A DNA stretch of 33,139 nt from positions 1 through 33,139 of the IMG/VR virus record IMGVR_UViG_3300021960_000289; one strand, 5' to 3'. The notes below the pieces were generated by a model. The model was not told the origin of the DNA. It worked only from the letters and a program-made list of their open reading frames with translations, and did no database searches. The first letter of the stretch is position 1. Each line of letters starts with the position of its first letter. This DNA is from a virus (taxonomy: Duplodnaviria > Caudoviricetes). This document shows, piece after piece, positions 2,554 to 32,218 of this stretch. A program made the position numbers and the translations under genes.

Positions 2554-2772
2554 TTAAACTCCTAAGTCAGAAGAAATACCAAGACGCGCATCTTCGCGCG
2601 TAGGCGATAACAACATACGCTGACCACCAAATCTGCGAGCGCGAGCACGAGAGGCCATTTGCGCTGCTTGACGACGCTCCTCTTCAGCAAGACGCTCTTC
2701 TTGACGTTTCTGGGCGGCAACTATTTCCGGCGATGGTGCAGGCATTTTCGGAGCCTTAAAAAGTCCACCCAT
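2554..2772 (-). CDS. Small hypothetical virion-associated protein (MGG-start)
   Basis: 72 aa; RARRFGGQRMLL motif; TAATG coupling with the GNAT gene. Confidence 0.75.
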   Translation of the reverse strand: MGGLFKAPKMPAPSPEIVAAQKRQEERLAEEERRQAAQMASRARARRFGGQRMLLSPTREDARLGISSDLGV

Positions 2773-3239
2773 TATTCAGTCCTCGCAAACATTTTATAAT
2801 CCGATCCATCAGGCCCATAACGGTGCAAGATAGCTTCTGGTTTCATTTTTAATGCAATAGCCCACCTCATTGCAAGCTCATTCCTACAGTTTACAGCAAT
2901 TTGCAATCTATGTAATTTCAAATCGATATAAATATTATTGAAGTATCGTATAGCAGTGCGCGTAGCTGTAATAGGAATTGTTTCAAACTGATATGAAGTC
3001 AATAGCCAAGCCTCGGCAACACCCGGCCAAATCTCATATGCGCCCCAACAGGCGACGATTTTTCCACCATATATTGCAGTGTAACAGTGCTTCTGCGTAC
3101 CGAACTGCTTTAATCGCTCCACATAGTCCGGCATATGTTCAAAGTATTCTTTTTCAAAGGGTCTCAGGTCCATTAAATTCACATGAGCCCAGTAAAATGG
3201 ACAGATAGATAATCTACTATTAGTGCTTAACTTAGACAT
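2772..3239 (-). CDS. GNAT-fold acetyltransferase-like protein (T7 gp13-like)
   Basis: IVACWGAYEIWPGVAEAWLL...HRLQIAV...NELAMRWAIALKMKPEAILHRYGPDGSDYKMFAR pattern, typical of phage GNAT-like proteins in late operons. Confidence 0.75.
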   Translation of the reverse strand: MSKLSTNSRLSICPFYWAHVNLMDLRPFEKEYFEHMPDYVERLKQFGTQKHCYTAIYGGKIVACWGAYEIWPGVAEAWLLTSYQFETIPITATRTAIRYFNNIYIDLKLHRLQIAVNCRNELAMRWAIALKMKPEAILHRYGPDGSDYKMFARTE

Positions 3240-3246
3240 AATACCC

Positions 3247-3275
3247 TTGATCTTGTGTTCATATACTACTATGAT
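3247..3275 (+). promoter_or_regulatory. Sigma70-type promoter for the intergenic small RNA
   Basis: TTGATC (3247-3252), 17-nt spacer, TATGAT (3270-3275); oriented opposite to the flanking genes. Confidence 0.7.
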
Positions 3276-3282
3276 ATCACTC

Positions 3283-3357
3283 GAATGGACGAGTCATGCG
3301 TGTCTGTTCTCCTCCCCGTGTGTGCTTGAGGGGTGTCTTCGGACACCCCTCTTTTTT
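3283..3357 (+). ncRNA. Putative ~75-nt trans-acting antisense sRNA (5' hairpin, anti-SD linker, terminator)
   Basis: Promoter and intrinsic terminator with no credible ORF between them. Stem GAAUGGAC/GUCUGUUC with loop AGUCAUGCG; linker UCCUCCCCGUGUGUGCUU. Complementary to several phage translation-initiation regions. Confidence 0.7.
3328..3357 (+). terminator. Rho-independent terminator on the plus strand
   Basis: GAGGGGTGTC-TTCG-GACACCCCTC followed by T6; the U-tract is present only in the plus orientation, opposite to terL. Confidence 0.85.
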
Positions 3358-4912
3358 ATGCAAACACGTTGAAGTCCATCGACGCATTAACCTGCTTAAA
3401 CAATGGCCTGCCATTTGGGTTCCGCGTCAGACGACGATGCTCACCACCACCCAACATAAGATACCCATACGCATCACCAACGTGCGAATGATCGTTCTTG
3501 GACGGCACGTCTCTGAACCGTTCTTGACCAGCACCAATCGCTAACCGCTTAAAATGATACCCACCAGCCAATGACTTCCTAATACGGTTGCAATCCTTCG
3601 ACACTAACAACCCCGGACGACCGTCAATCAATCTATTCATCGGCATAGCACCAGCCTCACGACGCACCATGAAATCATTGGAGTTCGTCGGCTGCGCTCT
3701 CAAACCAAGGGTCCGCAGATGGTCGAACGCCGTTACTTCAAATATTTCATCGCGTTTACCACCTGCGGGGTCGCCCCAGATAAACACCTCGCTCTTTGGG
3801 AACTTAGTGCTAATATCCGCCATAAGGTGATGGGCGAACCTCTCAAGACCCATGTCAAATGCTACCAATTCATGCACGACATGCCAACGCCCGTTCGGCA
3901 TCTTTTGCCCAAATACAGCAGCAGGCGTTAAACCAAAGTCCAAACCAATATGCACTGGCATACCGACTTCAATCTCAACGTCAGCCGCCATCAAGCTATC
4001 ACTATACTCATGCCAGACAGGCTTACCGTCCTGCACATAAACATACTTAGCCCCAGCATAACACTCGATCCAATCAAGCGTCTTACCCGCTAATTGCTGC
4101 TCGTAATAACCGGGCGGCAAGTTATTCAGGTTCTCAGCCTTCGGATTTAACCGCCAATACTTATTCGCCCCAAAAATCGCATCCTCATGCTCTTTAGTTG
4201 CGTCAGTAACACCACCGGGCTGCTTGTAGAACTTCCACGGATACCGACCCCTAATCGGGTTCTTCTCCGCTAACTCATGCCACCAATGATCCGAGTCCAT
4301 CGGGTTGGTAGACATCCAAACACCACGCCACGGACAACCGCCATTCTTCTTCGTCGGATAACGACCAACACGCGACGTTAATCCATCAACCACCGCTTTC
4401 GGTAACTCACGAGCCTCATCAACGAAGCCACCCGTCAATTCAAGTGACAATAACTTCCTAACGTCTCTCGGCTGATCCAACGCCAGAAAGATAACCTCAC
4501 AGTCCAATCCCGGCGTATCTTCTCTGGGCGGCAACTTAATATGATGCGTAATCGGTGGAGACCACCGCATCTCACCCCACATATGTTCAGGAAATAACTC
4601 CTGCCACGTCTTAATCGTCGTCGTCCGCAACTCAGGATAGCTATTACGAATAACAGCAAACCGCGTGTACCGAACATTATCGACGGGCGAAGGTGTCTGC
4701 TTCACGGCGCGAAGCATCACCTCCGCCAAACAAGCATACGTCTTGCCTGACCCTACCGGACCCATCAAGCCACGAACGAAGCTATCGTCATTCAAGAACT
4801 GCCACGTCGTAGGACTTTGCGAAAAGTCCAAGTTAAGACCAGTGAGCGCGTCGTCGCCCTTCTGGCGGCGACGGCGCGGCGAACGGTCTGTAGCGCGTGG
4901 CGATCTAGACAT
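3356..4912 (-). CDS. terL: Terminase large subunit
   Basis: Walker A GPVGSGKT, Walker B FVDE, motif III STNP, RNase H-like nuclease IGLDFG...WGDPAG...SHVGDAYGY. Confidence 0.95.
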   Translation of the reverse strand: MSRSPRATDRSPRRRRQKGDDALTGLNLDFSQSPTTWQFLNDDSFVRGLMGPVGSGKTYACLAEVMLRAVKQTPSPVDNVRYTRFAVIRNSYPELRTTTIKTWQELFPEHMWGEMRWSPPITHHIKLPPREDTPGLDCEVIFLALDQPRDVRKLLSLELTGGFVDEARELPKAVVDGLTSRVGRYPTKKNGGCPWRGVWMSTNPMDSDHWWHELAEKNPIRGRYPWKFYKQPGGVTDATKEHEDAIFGANKYWRLNPKAENLNNLPPGYYEQQLAGKTLDWIECYAGAKYVYVQDGKPVWHEYSDSLMAADVEIEVGMPVHIGLDFGLTPAAVFGQKMPNGRWHVVHELVAFDMGLERFAHHLMADISTKFPKSEVFIWGDPAGGKRDEIFEVTAFDHLRTLGLRAQPTNSNDFMVRREAGAMPMNRLIDGRPGLLVSKDCNRIRKSLAGGYHFKRLAIGAGQERFRDVPSKNDHSHVGDAYGYLMLGGGEHRRLTRNPNGRPLFKQVNASMDFNVFA

Positions 4913-6838: not shown

Positions 6839-7406
6839 CGTCTAACTTCCCGCCTTTAGTTTCCATACCCTTGAATATAGCGTCCGGCATTTTCGCCTTT
6901 ACCAATGACATGAGCTTAGCCGCATCGTAAGCATCAATTACCCGCGCCACCTCTTCCACGCTCCACACTACACAATCCGGGCGCTCCTTGGCTACCTTTA
7001 CGGCTTCATAGTCTGAGCGCGTAATACATAAGACGCCGCCCGATGGGATTGCAGCTTCCCATGCTTCCCCGGTTAGCTCTTTTGCTCCTGCTTCCATCGC
7101 TGCCTTTTCTAACGCGGCATACGCTCGACACGATACAGGAACCAGCTTCTCTACCTCGTCGGCGTTACACTCGCGGATAGCTTTATTGAGCCTATCACAT
7201 TGCAACTCGAATCGCTCGCGTAATTCCTGCCCTACTAAATCGGGCAAGCGATCAATACCCCATCGCGATTCATATCCGCTAACTACTTTATCGTGTTCGA
7301 GTAGTGCTGACCGCACTCTTTCGGCGTCACGCTCATTCGGCCCGAAGTCACGACGCACTGATGATCGATCAGCTTTCGTGACTCGTTTTCTAGTTCCAGT
7401 TTTCAT
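6822..7406 (-). CDS. Conserved hypothetical phage protein
   Basis: 194 aa; GGGGA RBS; ESRWGIDRLPDLV motif; C-terminal DDAIPF (SSB-tail-like). Confidence 0.8.
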   Translation of the reverse strand: MKTGTRKRVTKADRSSVRRDFGPNERDAERVRSALLEHDKVVSGYESRWGIDRLPDLVGQELRERFELQCDRLNKAIRECNADEVEKLVPVSCRAYAALEKAAMEAGAKELTGEAWEAAIPSGGVLCITRSDYEAVKVAKERPDCVVWSVEEVARVIDAYDAAKLMSLVKAKMPDAIFKGMETKGGKLDDAIPF

Positions 7407-7417
7407 CTTTTCCCCTT

Positions 7418-7575
7418 CATCAATAGATCATCATCAAATCGCATCAATAGTATTGTCCCCCTATAGGGGGACACAACACTATTGATCTGATGGAGCATTG
7501 TCTTACTACCCCTTACATACCCCCGATCTGCTATTGATCCCCTTATTATTCAATGACTTAGCCAGTTGATCCCCT
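7418..7575. repeat. Palindrome and iterated motif region, candidate replication origin
   Basis: Perfect 20-bp palindrome TGTCCCCCTATAGGGGGACA (7454-7473) flanked by inverted ATCAATAG/CTATTGAT copies (7419, 7443, 7479, 7531); near-consensus IHF site at 7548-7560. Confidence 0.6.
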
Positions 7576-7617: not shown

Positions 7618-7661
7618 TTGCGCGATATCGGGAGTGTATTATATATAACAGTTATAGCACA
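7618..7661 (+). promoter_or_regulatory. Putative early promoter/operator
   Basis: TTGCGC-N16/18-TATATA, then ACAGTTATAGCACA; close copy at 12112-12153. Confidence 0.55.
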
Positions 7662-7682
7662 CTTATATACGGGAGATATAGC

Positions 7683-8381
7683 ATGACTACGACTTTTTAT
7701 TCACTCACGCTTAAAAGTACGAATAAGAAAACCGGGCCAATTCCCGTTTCAACGACTTCAGCTAATACTTGCCCTAACGATTGCCCTTTTAAGGGCAATG
7801 GATGTTATGCCGACGGATACCCTTTAAAAGGCCGTTGGGATGAGGTAACTCGCGGCGAGCGTGGCGGAAGATTGGAAGCATTTTGTGATCAAGTCGCGGA
7901 CTTGCCAGAAAATCAATTATGGCGTCACAACCAAGCGGGCGACCTTCCGGGCGATGGTGTTCATATTGACGTGACGGCAATGTCTAAGCTTGTCGCGGCG
8001 AATAAGGGCAAGCGCGGATTTACTTTTACGCACTATAACCCTAAACGCGGCCCCACTAACGCGGCTGTTATAGAAGCCGCTAACAAAGACGGGTTTGTTG
8101 TTAACTTATCGGCTAACAATCTAAATCATGCCGACGAACTAGCCGCGTTAGATATTGGCCCGGTTGCAACCGTATTGCCCGCCGATTTTAACGCGCGCAA
8201 AACTACGACGCCGCAAGGCCGTCGCGTCGCGCAGTGTCCCGCTACTTATAAGGACACAACTTGCGCGGAATGCGGATTGTGCGCCAAGCGTGACCGCAAG
8301 GTCATTGTTGGTTTCCCGGCGCATGGCAACAATAAACGCAAAGCATCCGCAATTGTCGAAAACATGGAGCACACACAATGA
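7683..8381 (+). CDS. Cys-rich early phage protein (GP88/DUF7227-like, possibly Fe-S binding)
   Basis: Probable start ATG 7683 with GGGAG RBS; motifs NKKTGPIP, TCPNDCPF..NGCYA, RHNQAGD, FTHY, NLSANN, CPA...CAECGLC, GFPAHG. Family assignment is from recall. Confidence 0.75.
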   Translation: MTTTFYSLTLKSTNKKTGPIPVSTTSANTCPNDCPFKGNGCYADGYPLKGRWDEVTRGERGGRLEAFCDQVADLPENQLWRHNQAGDLPGDGVHIDVTAMSKLVAANKGKRGFTFTHYNPKRGPTNAAVIEAANKDGFVVNLSANNLNHADELAALDIGPVATVLPADFNARKTTTPQGRRVAQCPATYKDTTCAECGLCAKRDRKVIVGFPAHGNNKRKASAIVENMEHTQ

Positions 8382-8509
8382 AACGCAATCCACTTATTTT
8401 TATCGCCGAGTTTCTCACCATCTTGGCGTTCTTTGCCGGGTGCTTTGCCATCATGGCGTTAGCGCCCGAAATAAACCAAACCATTATTGAGTTAAAAGGG
8501 GGCAATTAG
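8378..8509 (+). CDS. Small membrane protein (43 aa)
   Basis: Manual translation MKRNPLIFIAEFLTILAFFAGCFAIMALAPEINQTIIELKGGN; GGAG RBS; ATGA overlap with the upstream gene. Confidence 0.7.
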   Translation: MKRNPLIFIAEFLTILAFFAGCFAIMALAPEINQTIIELKGGN

Positions 8510-10377
8510 CCCCCTTCTTTTTGCGCTTCCTGCCCTTCCGGCGTAGGCCACACAAAGCCTTTATCTGTCACGACTAGGCCGCGCTTCTGTAGTGCATTAC
8601 GCGCTGCTGAGCGCGCCTGTGCCGTTTCGTCGGGCGCGTCACGCTTATGCGCATCGTGCCATACTGTAGAAAGTACCTTCTGAGCCTGTGCATCGATGAT
8701 AGTATTCGTTAAAATCCGCAATGCGTGGTATTGTGAAGGCGTGAGCCTAACCTTGGCCTTGCCCTCAACTTCGACACGCTCCAACACGATTGACGTTTCA
8801 CCTATAAGCGCGCGTTGGATCATACGAAAACGCAAGGGCTCTATTTGCTCGGCGTCTTTTTGCTTTTCAATTTCGCACGTTAGCAGGCCGTATTCTTGCG
8901 ATAGTTTTAAGACACTATCTGAGCCACCTAGTAGCGCGCTACTGCCCCTCATGCCGCGCGCCGAGTCCTTACCGGCGTGATGGATACCCAAAAGAGCGCC
9001 CCCGGTATGCTTCTTTATGGCGTCACACGCTGCAATGAATAGCCCCATGCTATCCGCGCTGTTTTCCTCGTGGCCTAGCAAGGCACGAGCTACCGTATCC
9101 ACTACCACGAGCGAAAAGTTTTCGCCTATCGCGTCGATAGTGCGTAGAAGGCGTTCTATGTCCCCGTCATTAGCGAAGGCGACGCTTGCGGGTAGGATAT
9201 ACAGTGGCGCATCATCACGCCATCCACGGGCGTATCTGAGGGCCTTCACGCGCTTACCTAAACCCGCTGCCCCTTCCCCCGCTATGTATAGAACCCGGCC
9301 TTGCGTCGTTGGTAGCCCGTGGAATGGAACACCGCGCGCAATACTCAGTGCTAAATCTAGCGCAAAAAACGTCTTTCCCACGCCCGGTGGAGCGTACAGG
9401 ATGCCTAATCCTTGCCGGGTCAATAGGTTTTCGACGGCCCAATCGACGGGCGGGAGAGCCATCAGATCGGAGAGGCTTAGAATCGGAAAAAGGCCATCGG
9501 GGGCCTTCAAATCGGGCTCTTCAGCTTCATAGATAGGGCTAGGGTCCGGAATGATTTCTTCGGCAATTTGAATTGGCGGTTCAATTATTTTCGGCGCGAC
9601 CTTCACTGCCTGTTTGAACGCGCTCAAATCCCTACCCATATTGAACCAATCCGCAACATCACCTTTTGGTGGTAGCCCTTGCAGTTCAACGCGCTTTATC
9701 TCAGCGGCTATACCCCATAACTTTTGGATCACTACATCCGCGTGACGTTTACCCGGCTCATCGTTGTCGGGCAGCACGATCACACGCCTACCTTCAAAGA
9801 ATTTATTCAGCGGATCGCGCCACTTGCCTGCGCCACCATGTGAAGTGGTGGCGACTAGGCCGTGTCGCGCTAGTGTATCAGCACACTTCTCGCCTTCGAC
9901 GATAAAGATTGGCGCTTCTGGATTCTTGATAATGTCGGGCAGGCGGTATGGTAGCGGTTCAATGCCGTCCATATTATAGACCCAACTCTCGCCCGCTGGC
10001 TGACGTTGGATGAAGCGTCGTGGCTCAAATCTGAGAACTTGATATCGTAGTTCTCCGTTGTCGTCGTAGTAATTATAGGCTTTGCTGAGATACTCTCTCG
10101 GACGTAGCTTCTCAGCTTGTTGCGACGAGATACCGAACTTACGTTGCAGGACTGATCCAATCCCGCCAAGCGTTGCACCTTCTTCTCGTTTAACAAGATC
10201 AATTACTCCACCGCCTTCGCCACCGTTCGTTTCAAAATCGTACCATGTGCCTTTGCGTACATCGACGGACTTACTGCCGTGTGTACCCCATCTCAGTTCG
10301 TGTCCTCGTTTTGCAGTTGGCTCACCCCAGTAGTGGGTAGCCACCTGTTGCATATACGCTCCGATATTTTCAGTCAT
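8506..10377 (-). CDS. Primase-helicase fusion (TOPRIM + RepA/AAA_25-type SF4 helicase)
   Basis: TOPRIM IFIVEGEKCAD...LPDNDEPG...KGDVADW; Walker A APPGVGKT; YIAGEG; VVDT; HHAGKD...RGSSAL. Confidence 0.92.
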   Translation of the reverse strand: MTENIGAYMQQVATHYWGEPTAKRGHELRWGTHGSKSVDVRKGTWYDFETNGGEGGGVIDLVKREEGATLGGIGSVLQRKFGISSQQAEKLRPREYLSKAYNYYDDNGELRYQVLRFEPRRFIQRQPAGESWVYNMDGIEPLPYRLPDIIKNPEAPIFIVEGEKCADTLARHGLVATTSHGGAGKWRDPLNKFFEGRRVIVLPDNDEPGKRHADVVIQKLWGIAAEIKRVELQGLPPKGDVADWFNMGRDLSAFKQAVKVAPKIIEPPIQIAEEIIPDPSPIYEAEEPDLKAPDGLFPILSLSDLMALPPVDWAVENLLTRQGLGILYAPPGVGKTFFALDLALSIARGVPFHGLPTTQGRVLYIAGEGAAGLGKRVKALRYARGWRDDAPLYILPASVAFANDGDIERLLRTIDAIGENFSLVVVDTVARALLGHEENSADSMGLFIAACDAIKKHTGGALLGIHHAGKDSARGMRGSSALLGGSDSVLKLSQEYGLLTCEIEKQKDAEQIEPLRFRMIQRALIGETSIVLERVEVEGKAKVRLTPSQYHALRILTNTIIDAQAQKVLSTVWHDAHKRDAPDETAQARSAARNALQKRGLVVTDKGFVWPTPEGQEAQKEGG

Positions 10378-10398
10378 GCTAAATCCCGTGTGCTAACG

Positions 10399-10432
10399 AA
10401 AAAATGGGCGGGTAGCATATTGCCACCCGCCC
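10399..10432 (-). terminator. Intrinsic terminator/attenuator between SSB and primase-helicase
   Basis: Minus strand GGGCGGGTGGCA-ATA-TGCTACCCGCCC-ATTTTTT. Confidence 0.75.
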
Positions 10433-10439
10433 GCGTTTG

Positions 10440-11051
10440 TCAAAATAAATCGTCTTCCTCCGCTGCTTCCTGCACCAGAGGTTTTGGTGCTGGCGCTGGT
10501 GATGATCCACCATCCAAACCTTCGGGACGATCAACCCATGACGCAATCTTCCAAGATGGAACGCGATAGGTAGACTTCGATCCATCAGGGGTAGTGATGG
10601 ATATCTTCTCAATCGACGTAATCGCAATTACTGGAACCTTACCTTCATTGGCTCCACGCTCCGCTTCAAACTGACTGTGCAGTTCATCCATCTTACGCAA
10701 GACGGTCTTGGCTGAGTGCGAGAACTCGCGCAACCCAAGGTCTTTATTATAGATGCGTAAACGGAAGGCGTTCTTGTGATCCGGGCTAGGACGGGCTGGC
10801 ATCTCGCCACCAATCTTAACCATGTGGAAGTCAGGCGCACCACCAGCGAAGGACAACCAACCGACCTCAATGTTATCGAAGTCAGCGACGAACTTGACAG
10901 GAATTTCCATGTCATTCTCGTCTCGTGTCCACGCACCACCTGCGTCTTGATACCGATCTACTCTGACCATCGCGCCGGACTTAGCGTCCCACTTAACGAT
11001 AGGCAGGATATCACCTGACGCTTTAGCTTCCGTTGCAAAACCTAATGCCAT
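10440..11051 (-). CDS. Putative single-stranded DNA-binding protein
   Basis: 203 aa, beta-rich, Pro/Ala linker and acidic aromatic-ended tail (EEDDLF); next to the primase-helicase. Confidence 0.65.
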   Translation of the reverse strand: MALGFATEAKASGDILPIVKWDAKSGAMVRVDRYQDAGGAWTRDENDMEIPVKFVADFDNIEVGWLSFAGGAPDFHMVKIGGEMPARPSPDHKNAFRLRIYNKDLGLREFSHSAKTVLRKMDELHSQFEAERGANEGKVPVIAITSIEKISITTPDGSKSTYRVPSWKIASWVDRPEGLDGGSSPAPAPKPLVQEAAEEDDLF

Positions 11052-11491: not shown

Positions 11492-11895
11492 ATTAACTCT
11501 CTTGCTATGTAGCAGAAGGTTTCAAAATCCACCTCTGCTGTTTTAATCCATCCAATGTTTTCGGTTTTATCAAACATCAAACCGATGGTGCTTAAGGCTA
11601 GGACACAACGAATAGGTGCGCGATCATACTTATAGATAAGCACTGGCTGTAGATTAGCGCGTGACGCAGCAAAGCACGTCTGCCCCCACCACTCTGGCTT
11701 GTGTCCATTGCCACTCGCGTACCGCTTGCACTCGATAGCGAACGGCCATTCATCACACTCAATCGGGCGCAGATCACAGAGTTGTGATTGCCTGTACTGC
11801 TCAATGTCTCTTTGAAATTTTATTCCAATTTCATCGAACAACATACCAGCAATCTTGCGCTCAAACGCTGCACCTTTTTGCCTACCGTTAATCAC
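11458..11895 (-). CDS. Holliday junction resolvase-like (Hjc-type) nuclease
   Basis: RQKGAAFERKIA...DL...FAIECKR...WWGQ...PVLIYK. Confidence 0.85.
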   Translation of the reverse strand: MINGRQKGAAFERKIAGMLFDEIGIKFQRDIEQYRQSQLCDLRPIECDEWPFAIECKRYASGNGHKPEWWGQTCFAASRANLQPVLIYKYDRAPIRCVLALSTIGLMFDKTENIGWIKTAEVDFETFCYIARELMCAQDTKDQPT

Positions 11896-12089
11896 CGCTT
11901 CGCTGCGCTTATCATTCTGTCAACGCTGGTGCGGTTCTCTTCCTCTTGAAGTACCCGCGCCAATGCAGTGTAAATTATTTCATCAGCCAGCGCTGACATG
12001 CTGCGGTGCGCGCTCTTCTCTACTGCCTCGCGCAGCATATGATGCGTCTCAACTCTAAGTCGCAACATACATGGTTTGTATTCGCTCAT
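11892..12089 (-). CDS. Ribbon-helix-helix (Arc-like) transcriptional regulator
   Basis: Probable start ATG 12089; KPCMLRLRVETHHMLREAVEKSAHRSMSALADEIIYTAL fits the Arc strand-helix-helix pattern. Confidence 0.7.
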   Translation of the reverse strand: MSEYKPCMLRLRVETHHMLREAVEKSAHRSMSALADEIIYTALARVLQEEENRTSVDRMISAAKR

Positions 12090-12106
12090 AAAAATTTTCT
12101 TCCGTT

Positions 12107-12162
12107 TGCTATTGCGAACTATGCTTTCAATGTTATATAACACTGATAGCACATAAGTACAA
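12107..12162. promoter_or_regulatory. Overlapping divergent promoters
   Basis: Plus strand: TTGCGA-N16-TATATA with TG extension. Minus strand: TTGTAC-N17-TATATA with TG extension. Both -10 boxes fall on the palindrome TGTTATATAACA (12131-12142). Confidence 0.6.
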
Positions 12163-12174
12163 CGGGGATAAATA

Positions 12175-12825
12175 ATGTTTAGACATGACAAGTATGTTTT
12201 GTATCTGCGCGTATCGACAGACAAGCAAGGCCGTAGTCAGCTTGGCCTTGAGGCCCAGCAGACAATGGCCTCTCTGTATATGGATAAGGTGATAGCCACA
12301 TATACAGAGGTAGAAAGCGGTAAGATTGATGATCGCCCTGAGTTAGCGAAAGCATTAGCTCACTGCCAACGTGAGGACGCTGCAATCTTAATCGCCAAGC
12401 TCGATAGGTTGTCTCGTTCTGCTTCATTCTTATTCACGCTGCGTGATAGTGGTGTGGAAATTGAGGCCGCTGATATGCCGGGTATGGGTACATTAGAGTT
12501 TGGTATTCGTGCTGTATTCGCGCAGCATGAACGCGAAGAGATTAGCCGACGCACCAAGGCAGCACTCGCTGAGAAGAAAGCGCGTGGTGTTAAGCTCGGA
12601 TCACCTACACCCCATCGTGGTGGAGCTAAGACTGCTGCCACGATCAAAAATAAGATGCAGACAATTTGCACGAAGGCATTGCCTCTTGCTCAGAAACTGC
12701 GCGATCATGGCGAGAGCTATCGTGCTATCGCCTCAACCTTGAACGAAACTGGTGTACCTGCCTACGGAAAACAATGGCACGACACAGGCGTTCGTAACAT
12801 GCTGGAGAACTACAATGGTCGGTAA
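12175..12825 (+). CDS. Serine recombinase (resolvase catalytic domain + short Recombinase-type DNA-binding domain)
   Basis: YLRVSTDKQ (catalytic Ser), EVESG...RPEL, AKLDRLSR, AQHEREEISRRTKAAL; C-terminal GESYRAIASTLN...GKQWHDTGVRNML. Confidence 0.92.
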   Translation: MFRHDKYVLYLRVSTDKQGRSQLGLEAQQTMASLYMDKVIATYTEVESGKIDDRPELAKALAHCQREDAAILIAKLDRLSRSASFLFTLRDSGVEIEAADMPGMGTLEFGIRAVFAQHEREEISRRTKAALAEKKARGVKLGSPTPHRGGAKTAATIKNKMQTICTKALPLAQKLRDHGESYRAIASTLNETGVPAYGKQWHDTGVRNMLENYNGR

Positions 12826-13774
12826 ATTGACCCCTGACGATATCGCTACTGCGTCCACACTGCCCGCAATCATGGGCTTCTCCCGATACAAGACGCAGAA
12901 CGATGCACTCGCTGACGCTATCGCAGCGATGGAAGGAACCAAGGAAGACAGTTGGACAGGCAACGAAGCAACTCGGTGGGGTGATAGGCTTGAGCCTGTC
13001 ATCATCACTGAGGCAGCGCAACGATTGAACACAAGCAACCTATGTCTTGAGTTTCCGCAAGCGTTTTTCCATAACACACTGCCTCTTGCCTGTTCGTTGG
13101 ATGGTACAGCCGAAGGTAATGGACAAATCTCTACTGATTATGAAGCGGGTATCTACTGTATCAACCGTCCAGTAATAGACCTATCTGGTACTGGTATTAT
13201 TGAGTCCAAGCTGACGAGTGCTATGCCAGAAGATAGGCCACCACCCTTCCGTGGACCGTGGCAACTACAGGCGCAGATGATGTGTACTGGACACAAGTGG
13301 GGCTGTATCGCAACACTTTATCGTGGCATTGAGCTTCGATTGTTTCTCTATAGTGAAGACCTAGAGATGCAAGGCGTAATTGCTGAAGCGGTCATGGAGT
13401 TTGAGAAGCGTAAGAAGGAACGCGACTGGTATCCATCAGTCTCAAGTGAGGATGCTAATACTGCTTACTCTCGTGTTGATGATGGGCTGCCGGACATAGA
13501 CTTGAGCAAGTCAATGAACGGTGAGAAAGCTCTTGTTGATTTGGTTGAAGCAAAGGCTGCGAAGGCTGCGGCTGAAGCTAGGATTGATGACGCGGAAGCT
13601 ACAATAAAAGACATCATGGGTAGCCACGAAAACGCTGTGGGTCTGGTAGGTAATACTAAGTATGGTATAAAGTGGGGAATGCGGAACTACAAAGCGACGC
13701 CGGAGAAGATTACTCCAGCGAAGCCAGCACGTAGTGTTCGTTCATCCTCTCTAACTTTGAAGGCCATTGATTGA
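12815..13774 (+). CDS. YqaJ/lambda-exonuclease-like recombination nuclease
   Basis: Probable start ATG 12815 (GGAG RBS); TASTLPAIMGFSRY, WGDRLEP, ACSLDG, IIESK, QLQAQMMCTG. Confidence 0.88.
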   Translation: MVGKLTPDDIATASTLPAIMGFSRYKTQNDALADAIAAMEGTKEDSWTGNEATRWGDRLEPVIITEAAQRLNTSNLCLEFPQAFFHNTLPLACSLDGTAEGNGQISTDYEAGIYCINRPVIDLSGTGIIESKLTSAMPEDRPPPFRGPWQLQAQMMCTGHKWGCIATLYRGIELRLFLYSEDLEMQGVIAEAVMEFEKRKKERDWYPSVSSEDANTAYSRVDDGLPDIDLSKSMNGEKALVDLVEAKAAKAAAEARIDDAEATIKDIMGSHENAVGLVGNTKYGIKWGMRNYKATPEKITPAKPARSVRSSSLTLKAID

Positions 13775-13992
13775 TGGAAACTAGGTATCCCGGTACGAAG
13801 CTGCCAGACGTTATTAAATTGTATCAGGATGAGAAGGGCGATAGGACTACTGAAGTCTACCGCCTTGGTAATTCATTCGGTATCAGATACAGCGAAGGCG
13901 ATAAACATTGGAATGGTTTCTATGCCACTCGTCTTGATGACGTTGAAGCAATAGCCGAGGATTGGGTACTTAGAAAACCGATCAGGATTTAA
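13771..13992 (+). CDS. Hypothetical protein
   Basis: 73 aa, overlaps the YqaJ stop; ends AEDWVL. Confidence 0.7.
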   Translation: MMETRYPGTKLPDVIKLYQDEKGDRTTEVYRLGNSFGIRYSEGDKHWNGFYATRLDDVEAIAEDWVLRKPIRI

Positions 13993-32085: not shown

Positions 32086-32121
32086 TTCCAGTTCCTTTCG
32101 CTAGAACAGTTATCAAAGTAA

Positions 32122-32218
32122 TCGCGTGCAGGTATCCGTGAGGGCTGCGAGCTTGAACGATTTAACGCCACGTCCCAAGGCGGGTCTGACGGGCCAATAA
32201 TGGGTATCCGTCAGACCC
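32122..32218 (-). ncRNA. Putative structured 5' leader of the capsid mRNA
   Basis: Two hairpins carrying the same GGAUACC/GCCC internal loop; 11-bp stem GGGTCTGACGG/CCGTCAGACCC. Confidence 0.55.

Follow-up and report, generated by a model that had tools for sequence, protein, structure and literature searches.

A putative small RNA unit in the terL-GNAT gap of a phage with a T7-like virion, predicted to pair with the primase and early leaders of its own genome

What might a predicted plus-strand transcription unit be doing in the short gap between two minus-strand genes of a phage, and which messages could its RNA recognize? The window (the whole stretch of DNA analyzed here, 33,139 nucleotides) is a nearly complete genome (CheckV 99%) of a marine phage with a T7-like virion and a G+C content of 45.7%. 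Its nearest cultured relative by terminase is the Methylophilales phage MEP301 (65% identity), which has a similar gene order. The minus strand carries most genes of the window, and two short plus-strand units are conspicuous. The first of these occupies a slot between g7406 and the primase that holds variable cargo, with unrelated genes in each lineage (compared in L003, L084, L018, L023, and G001). The unit that concerns us lies between terL and an acetyltransferase-like gene, hereafter GNAT, for which we found no Pfam match; the gene in the same position of MEP301 is annotated as a putative acetyltransferase. Upstream of g7406, a long inverted repeat centered on CCCCCTATAGGGGG (window 7400-7480) is a candidate origin or operator, and similar palindromes precede g7406 in many relatives.

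The original prediction placed three elements in the 116-bp gap between terL and GNAT: a promoter, the ~75-nt RNA that it would drive, and a terminator with a U-tract usable only on the plus strand. All these parts are where it placed them (Table 1), including the one-sided U-tract, and the RNA is predicted to start at 3282-3283. The fold that had been proposed, a 5' stem followed by an unpaired linker and the terminator hairpin, was reproduced (z = -4.4, with none of 200 shuffles equal). The promoter scan by itself is not evidence, since it returned 8 sites across the window for 15.7 expected. Among eight close variants, the 5' stem is paired in 64 of 64 cells, with four of its eight pairs varying on one side only and none on both, i.e., the compensatory change that we looked for in this stem is absent from these variants. 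Two other candidates were rejected. The hairpin was ruled out as a terminator for terL, given that its U-tract is on the plus strand only. A mini-ORF on the minus strand (an SD followed by MTRPFE) was also ruled out, as both its peptide and its frame vary among 7 close variants; its ATG is absent in 3 of the 17 clusters of relatives described below.

Table 1. Position of the RNA unit, its neighbors, its predicted targets, and other features discussed in the text.
Feature	Position	Strand	Remark
Acetyltransferase-like gene (GNAT), left flank of the RNA unit	2772..3239	-	MEP301 annotation
Sigma-70-type promoter, TTGATC-17-TATGAT	3247..3275	+	-35 overlaps the GNAT RBS of the opposite strand
5' hairpin of the predicted sRNA	3283..3309	+	Loop complements the start codons of primase and DUF7227
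Unpaired linker	3310..3327	+	Anti-SD core and lineage-specific tail; predicted main seed
Intrinsic terminator, 10-pair stem	3328..3357	+	U-tract on the plus strand only
terL (terminase large subunit), right flank of the RNA unit	3356..4912	-	Stop codon adjoins the U-tract
Predicted target: DUF7227 leader, first gene of the plus-strand early unit	7656..7688	+	
Plus-strand early unit 1: DUF7227 gene and 43-aa membrane peptide	7683-8509	+	
Predicted target: leader of the 43-aa membrane peptide	8367..8376	+	10-bp helix with the linker
Primase-helicase gene	8506-10377	-	
Predicted target: primase-helicase leader and start codon	10372..10394	-	
ssb-primase hairpin with overlapping TTGACA-18-TATGCT promoter-like site	10406..10443	-	Loop here without anti-SD
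65-aa candidate ribbon-helix-helix (Arc/CopG-like) regulator	11892..12089	-	Weak matches only
Predicted target: recombinase leader (serine resolvase/invertase type) at the head of early unit 2	12154..12168	+	
Plus-strand early unit 2: 216-aa resolvase-type recombinase and YqaJ exonuclease	12175-13992	+	

Is the unit peculiar to this phage? We collected the terL-GNAT gaps of relatives, merging 370 oriented loci into 290 records, of which 207 have both flanks. The gap is shorter than 45 nt in 108 of them and longer in 99. The unit type is conserved: 95 of the 99 longer gaps (95 of the 207 records) contain it and the other four do not. Because the records are redundant, the 17 sequence clusters of these units are the fairer counting unit. 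Across clusters the layout is kept and the sequence is not, to the point that stem sequences are unrelated. The terminator hairpin and its U-tract occur in the same orientation in 17 of 17 clusters, the TTG of the -35 box in 15, and a G at the predicted start in 13, with the 5' hairpin missing or weak in the shortest ones. The mean promoter score of the clusters is 9.7 versus 6.7 +/- 0.4 in shuffles, none of 300 being as high. When mapped on a tree of 50 TerL rows, the unit occupies the deep branches of the group and requires around five gains or losses, at least three of them on well-supported branches. A blind scan of unit-lacking genomes (8 phage records and MEP301) revealed no copy of the RNA elsewhere.

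Unit-lacking genomes were also scanned for terminators combined with promoters, which gave one candidate, in G002 (L107). In this genome, and in L031, L035, L053, and L026, the terL-GNAT unit is absent and the spacer between scaffold and capsid holds a short similar unit, in the late sense and before the capsid promoter, made of a -10 box, around 19 nt with an anti-SD, and a terminator. The best predicted targets of the G002 version are small minus-strand genes, not the primase. The major capsid gene of the window is itself preceded by a leader of about 125 nt (32086-32215, minus strand) with sequence blocks conserved across the family, and in many relatives a sigma-70-like promoter in this region overlaps the scaffold terminator. 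This capsid leader has no Rfam match and its single-sequence fold is unremarkable (z -0.4).

Which messages could the RNA pair with? The complement of the loop octamer, GCATGACT, does lie across the start codons of the primase (10372-10379, minus strand) and of DUF7227 (7681-7688, plus strand), as had been proposed. It had also been stated that every match is in mRNA sense. Not all matches are start regions in this sense, since the octamer also turns up at 907 (plus strand), where the portal gene is encoded on the opposite strand, and on the minus strand at 2265, within a small gene. GCATGACT is found at 2 of the 43 gene starts of the window versus 1 of 376 starts in eight unit-lacking genomes. 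When the loop is considered alone, the primase and DUF7227 leaders are the top two of 43 (-13.4 and -13.3 kcal/mol; next -10.5). When the pairing is corrected for accessibility, the top five of the 43 leaders are those of the recombinase (-15.1 kcal/mol), the membrane peptide (-14.4), DUF6378 (-14.3), the primase (-14.1), and DUF7227 (-12.7). These energies were computed with our own duplex-plus-accessibility script, on gene starts from our own gene caller, some of which are misplaced. In a raw genome-wide duplex scan without accessibility, GC-rich windows dominate; DUF7227 comes 9th among non-self sites and the primase leader falls outside the top 40.

We next shuffled only the part of the linker that lies behind the anti-SD core. 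The mean early-leader energy went from -11.3 to -6.3 +/- 1.4, and none of the 60 shuffles matched the real value. Therefore, the tail, and not the anti-SD core alone, drives the predicted pairing with early leaders. The additional targets that had been listed fared unequally: the recombinase and membrane-peptide leaders are among the five best, YqaJ is only 11th of 42, and the leader of DUF6378 is bound nearly as well by foreign RNAs (z -2.2 versus -2.5; p=0.22). From the predicted energies, the DUF6378 match is generic SD pairing rather than a specific target, and YqaJ is not a specific target either.

The proposal that a trans-encoded RNA has multiple targets, namely the leaders of the primase and of early genes, receives comparative support from predicted pairing that is matched by lineage. 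Our co-evolution set included 15 records of 9 lineages with the unit and other genes, 13 of which, from 8 lineages, had the primase leader. Own and foreign RNAs were compared by permutation, using one record per lineage. Primase leaders bind their own RNA at -12.2 kcal/mol and foreign ones at -7.4, a difference reached in 6 of 40320 permutations of the 8 lineages (p=1.5e-4, a value which, like the other permutation and Fisher values given here, is optimistic because the lineages are related). The result is kept without the window's lineage (3/5040, 6e-4) and when lineage B, whose record consists of two contigs joined over 1693 identical bases, is removed as well (3/720). A simpler duplex matrix gives 4/40320 for the primase. 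The plus-strand early leaders also prefer their own RNA (-9.3 versus -6.4 kcal/mol; 1/720, p=0.0014), with 1/120 permutations without the window's lineage and 1/24 without lineage B too. We found no own-RNA preference for 11 control genes (TerL, TerS, ssb, DUF6378, rep, g7406, capsid, two tail genes, g92, and scaffold; p 0.22-0.91), nor for all other minus-strand genes pooled (p 0.90). The GNAT leaders were left out of these control sets because they overlap the unit itself.

Paired changes can be followed among close relatives, where the linkers CCCGUGUG, CCCUGUGU, and CCCUAGUG stand opposite the primase leaders CACACGGG, ACACAGGG, and CACTAGGG. When these three leaders are combined with the three linkers, each leader favors its own. 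For the primase leader of the window, the own linker is better by only 0.2 kcal/mol among the three, and the linkers of two further relatives bind better. Seeds are wholly different between lineages whose TerL proteins are 84-100% identical. The plus-strand cargo genes vary by lineage, and their leaders still carry the complement of the local seed (five of six in L023, four of six in L105). A blind search for the segments most complementary to early leaders ranked the unit among the ten best segments of 7 of 11 records (ranks 1, 2, 2, 1, 1, 9, and 3), including rank 1 of about 830 segments in this phage, and missed it in the other four, i.e., L216 and three records with short RNAs. Enrichment in early leaders is absent in L003, L084, and G003 (p 0.26, 0.50, and 0.59), and the primase leader of G011 ranks only 18th of 47. 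In G012 (L211), the primase and ssb genes are relocated between GNAT and terL, the RNA gene is found directly beyond the end of the primase gene, and the RNA retains its match to the primase leader despite this relocation.

The relatives lacking the unit raise a further question: is the primase message left uncovered in them? A hairpin between ssb and the primase is present in every member. In 25 of the 27 unit-lacking primase leaders, it has a C/U-rich loop able to pair with a G-rich stretch at or just before the RBS, and in 9 of these 27 the loop contains exactly UUUCCUCCCU, the single-stranded 10-mer of the alpha-R8 RNAs (PMC12559287). Among unit-bearing primase leaders, such loop-to-RBS pairing is missing in 13 of 16; the remaining three all belong to lineage H, which has the shortest RNA and the weakest primase match. 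Counted by lineage, the cis loop occurs in 10 of 12 unit-lacking versus 1 of 8 unit-bearing ones (Fisher p=0.0045, the lineages not being independent). The loop and the downstream sequence co-vary modestly (p about 0.02). In some unit-lacking genomes (G004, G015, and G016, rows L151, L245, and L192), the hairpin that directly follows the ssb stop is very stable, and its loop forms an anti-SD, in many cases UUUCCUCCCU itself, opposite G-rich repeats before the primase start. We predict that the leader hairpin of unit-lacking relatives is a repressive pseudoknot, possibly opened by translation of ssb; alternatively, an anti-SD RNA could be released from the 3' end of ssb. Judging from these predicted pairings, nearly all members appear to have their primase RBS covered, either in cis or in trans.

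Altogether, comparison of the sequences strongly supports a real conserved element directed at the phage's own genes. Our main reading, to which we give a probability of around 0.7, is that the unit encodes a stand-alone sRNA that would pair in trans with the RBSs of the primase and early genes and block the translation of the phage's own replication and early functions. We favor a trans-acting repressor because the promoter, the hairpin-linker-terminator unit, and the complementary sites co-vary across related phages. The RNA would be transcribed by the host sigma-70 polymerase, starting at a promoter that lies within the late operon and antisense to it. The promoters predicted ahead of the primase, DUF7227, and the recombinase belong to the same host type, and there is no phage RNA polymerase among the gene annotations of the window, so the RNA would be made from entry and accumulate. 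The linker, with its anti-SD core and lineage-specific tail, would seed on the target leader, and in this lineage the 5' loop would add a second contact over the start codon. The RNA would most likely block the loading of ribosomes on the primase and early messages, and may use Hfq. A stable RNA building up with time and genome copy number could exert negative feedback on primase and early translation, resulting in a brake on replication or an early shut-off that includes the early cargo. Incoming kin with matching leaders could be silenced as a side effect. The RNA might thus act as a timer of lytic growth, maintain a carrier state, or exclude kin. Late transcription through the locus would oppose the RNA, both by collision and by providing a perfect antisense strand. 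In this way, the trans RNA would do what the loop of the primase-leader hairpin is predicted to do in cis in most unit-lacking relatives.

The best surviving alternative shares this molecular mechanism and differs in purpose. A constitutive RNA expressed from a dormant genome, as in P4 CI, would keep the primase and early genes off and block kin in a lysogenic or carrier state, and late-operon transcription through the locus would cancel the RNA, making a toggle. We regard it as unlikely. In its favor, some of the predicted targets open units that follow sigma-70-like promoters, the RNA has its perfect antisense in the late mRNA, and the complete difference of seeds at such high TerL identity is what one expects of immunity groups. 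It had been argued that the lack of a repressor may point to immunity by RNA. None of the 5 near-complete genomes yielded an HTH_3 repressor, which would favor a role for the RNA. The argument is weakened by the candidate Arc/CopG-like regulator (weak matches only), a conserved ORF that occurs in both unit-bearing and unit-lacking groups and, in the window, is divergent from the recombinase promoter. Its single-sequence fold has two helices; its alignment model gave no significant Foldseek match, with ribbon-helix-helix proteins among the weak rows. This protein may regulate early promoters in both groups. Between its ORF and the recombinase (window 11892-12175) there is a divergent promoter region, with a 12-bp palindrome at 12131 that is a candidate operator and is kept only in the closest relative tested.

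The other ingredients of lysogeny also argue against this reading, although a plasmid or carrier state may occur. A tyrosine integrase (PF00589) was found in none of the 5 near-complete genomes. The serine recombinase is a 216-aa protein of the resolvase/invertase type. PF00239 occurs in 3 of 5 relatives; the complete genome G001, which bears the unit, lacks it, and the unit-lacking G004 has it. The authors who described MEP301 considered it improbable that the resolvase of that phage functions as a serine recombinase (PMC8024684). Searching bacterial and archaeal genomes gave 4 matches, all phage-sized contigs in unrelated bins, and no integrated prophage was seen among them. One unit-bearing contig is in an alphaproteobacterial MAG, and unit-lacking contigs are in unrelated bins. 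These contigs of the group (L107, L108, L109, and L110) come from MAGs labeled Opitutae, Nitrosopumilus, Alphaproteobacteria, and Parvibaculum, and their placement is probably binning contamination rather than evidence of prophages. Lysogeny is thus the weakest part of the idea of an RNA switch, given the lack of tyrosine integrase and HTH_3, the distribution of the resolvase in G001 and G004, and the judgment on the MEP301 protein. The lysogeny switch of the original prediction is unsupported, no integrase, repressor, or prophage having been found.

Could the RNA be aimed at the host instead of at the phage? It would then be a mimic of MmgR and other alpha-R8 RNAs, retuning host metabolism (carbon storage, transporters), with secondary matches to phage genes. 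We consider this improbable. The likeness is real in layout, since the unit is assembled, like alpha-R8 RNAs, from a dedicated promoter, a 5' hairpin, an unpaired core, and an intrinsic terminator. The anti-SD core, which would pair with many host messages, is identical to the alpha-R8 10-mer at 8 of 10 positions in the window, where the 10-mer starts at 3308. The best member of 11 of the 17 clusters has 8-9 of 10 (9 of 10 in 5 clusters), so that a near-core 10-mer is retained; the exact 10-mer occurs in no cluster, and the flanks follow the phage leaders rather than a fixed target, which speaks against a host-directed role. The Rfam search reached the gathering score neither in the window nor in 13 related loci, and matches to sbrA and AniS were discounted as driven by the terminator. 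With RF00519, the window copy scores 15.1 bits and the units of relatives 24.8-32.5 (the 25-32 bits that favor a mimic), none reaching the cut-off of 41, with a background of up to 28 bits in an unrelated bacterial bin. A genome-wide RF00519 search of this phage gave no candidate, and the unit is the best RF00519 match in 4 of 5 related genomes. The RNA does not reach membership of an Rfam family, and saying that it is not a described family was too strong, given its resemblance in layout and near-core 10-mer to alpha-R8/suhB/MmgR.

Slightly less probable still is that the RNA serves as a cis-antisense regulator of the late operon, pairing over its full length with the terL-GNAT message and causing its cutting or uncoupling. 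Full complementarity is guaranteed by geometry, and in several lineages the predicted RNA start is at most around 35 nt upstream of the called GNAT start, although some of these starts are miscalled. In the window, the RNA is intergenic and begins around 44 nt upstream of the GNAT start codon, off the RBS, without the overlap with the RBS or coding sequence of its target that defines cis-antisense RNAs. Furthermore, such control leaves unexplained why the RNA co-varies with leaders at a distance of 4-9 kb. The RNA may have it as an additional role. Least probable, finally, is a DNA-level repeat (an inverted copy of an early leader, or a shared protein-binding motif, whose RNA does not pair with those messages): read on the minus strand the locus does look like a leader (SD, then ATG), and a G-U wobble comparison aimed at separating RNA pairing from a DNA repeat gave no separation (100 wobble-type versus 81 other transitions, a ratio that foreign pairs share, p=0.8), but conservation of the promoter and U-tract is confined to the orientation from which the complementary RNA would be made, the matches lie on the RBSs of genes of both strands and change with the lineage, and a DNA motif does not explain the swap with the cis anti-SD loop.

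The evolution of the sequences by itself points to a single RNA keyed to the primase and the early cargo, and re-keyed in at least seven other lineages. This suggests how the group could limit its replication, and possibly exclude kin, without a recognizable repressor or integrase. It also provides a natural set of matched and mismatched RNA-target pairs, usable in a reporter without phage culture. If true, the apparent exchange of a cis anti-SD loop and a trans RNA for one another at a single RBS would be a rare worked example of the gain or loss of control by a trans-acting sRNA. More tentatively, a widespread group of marine phages might have an RNA-only, lineage-keyed replication switch and no CI-type repressor, in which an anti-SD sRNA scaffold of host type was turned on the phage's own primase and early operons and swaps with a cis pseudoknot in the primase leader, and in which rapidly diverging seeds define immunity (incompatibility) groups among kin that co-infect.

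How does this unit compare with known systems? Our literature search, which covered the main texts of mostly open-access journals, found no paper on this RNA or on a phage MmgR-like RNA aimed at phage genes. The closest likeness is with the alpha-R8 family, which includes suhB (RF00519), MmgR of Sinorhizobium meliloti, SisA-D of Caulobacter crescentus, and SuhB of Sphingopyxis granuli, and whose layout is described in PMC1273637, PMC12559287, PMC7143759, and bioRxiv 10.64898/2025.12.09.693200. Both are stand-alone RNAs, of around 75 nt here, with their own promoter, a 5' hairpin, a C/U-rich anti-SD stretch, and a terminator (PMC1273637, PMC12559287). The alpha-R8 RNAs associate with Hfq and are described as repressing by pairing near the RBS (PMC12559287; bioRxiv 10.64898/2025.12.09.693200), whereas pairing of the phage unit is predicted only. 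They are set in alphaproteobacterial genomes, often beside an FGase gene, whereas our unit is phage-borne, flanked by terL and GNAT, predicted to target the phage's own genes, and carries seeds that diverge by lineage. By analogy, the unit would work like an alpha-R8 RNA, and a common origin is plausible.

Among phage RNAs, the CI RNA of P4 is similar in being a small RNA that holds the phage's own replication genes off by pairing; it is described as arising by processing of the leader of its own target operon and as causing premature termination via seqA and seqC, which flank it (PMC4825925). Our unit, which has no Rfam link to P4 CI, differs in having its own antisense promoter and terminator and in lying 4-9 kb from its predicted targets, which are several RBSs. 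According to one account, trans-acting phage sRNAs mostly target the host or one regulator gene, and sar of P22, OOP and aQ of lambda, and 24B_1 of Phi24B repress phage regulatory genes by pairing, each with a single regulator as target (ant, cII, Q, and d_ant) and mostly as antisense RNAs (PMC12197685). Unlike them, our unit is predicted to target the primase and several early leaders directly. The c4 RNA of P1 and P7 is another phage RNA that represses a phage regulatory gene by pairing. VpdS of VP882 and PreS of lambda are phage-encoded, Hfq-bound, trans-acting sRNAs; PreS acts on host dnaN, VpdS competes for Hfq, and both are described as promoting phage replication (PMC12197685). In contrast, the unit described here is predicted to restrain the phage's own replication genes. 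In this respect it recalls plasmids, where the Inc RNA of IncI/IncB (acting on the repZ pseudoknot) and CopA of R1 are made from their own promoters and limit the translation of replication proteins, with changes in the seed defining incompatibility groups. These copy-number RNAs are encoded in cis and each has a single target, and the repZ pseudoknot is an activating one, whereas our unit would pair imperfectly, in trans, and with multiple targets, and the cis loop of its relatives is predicted to be repressive.
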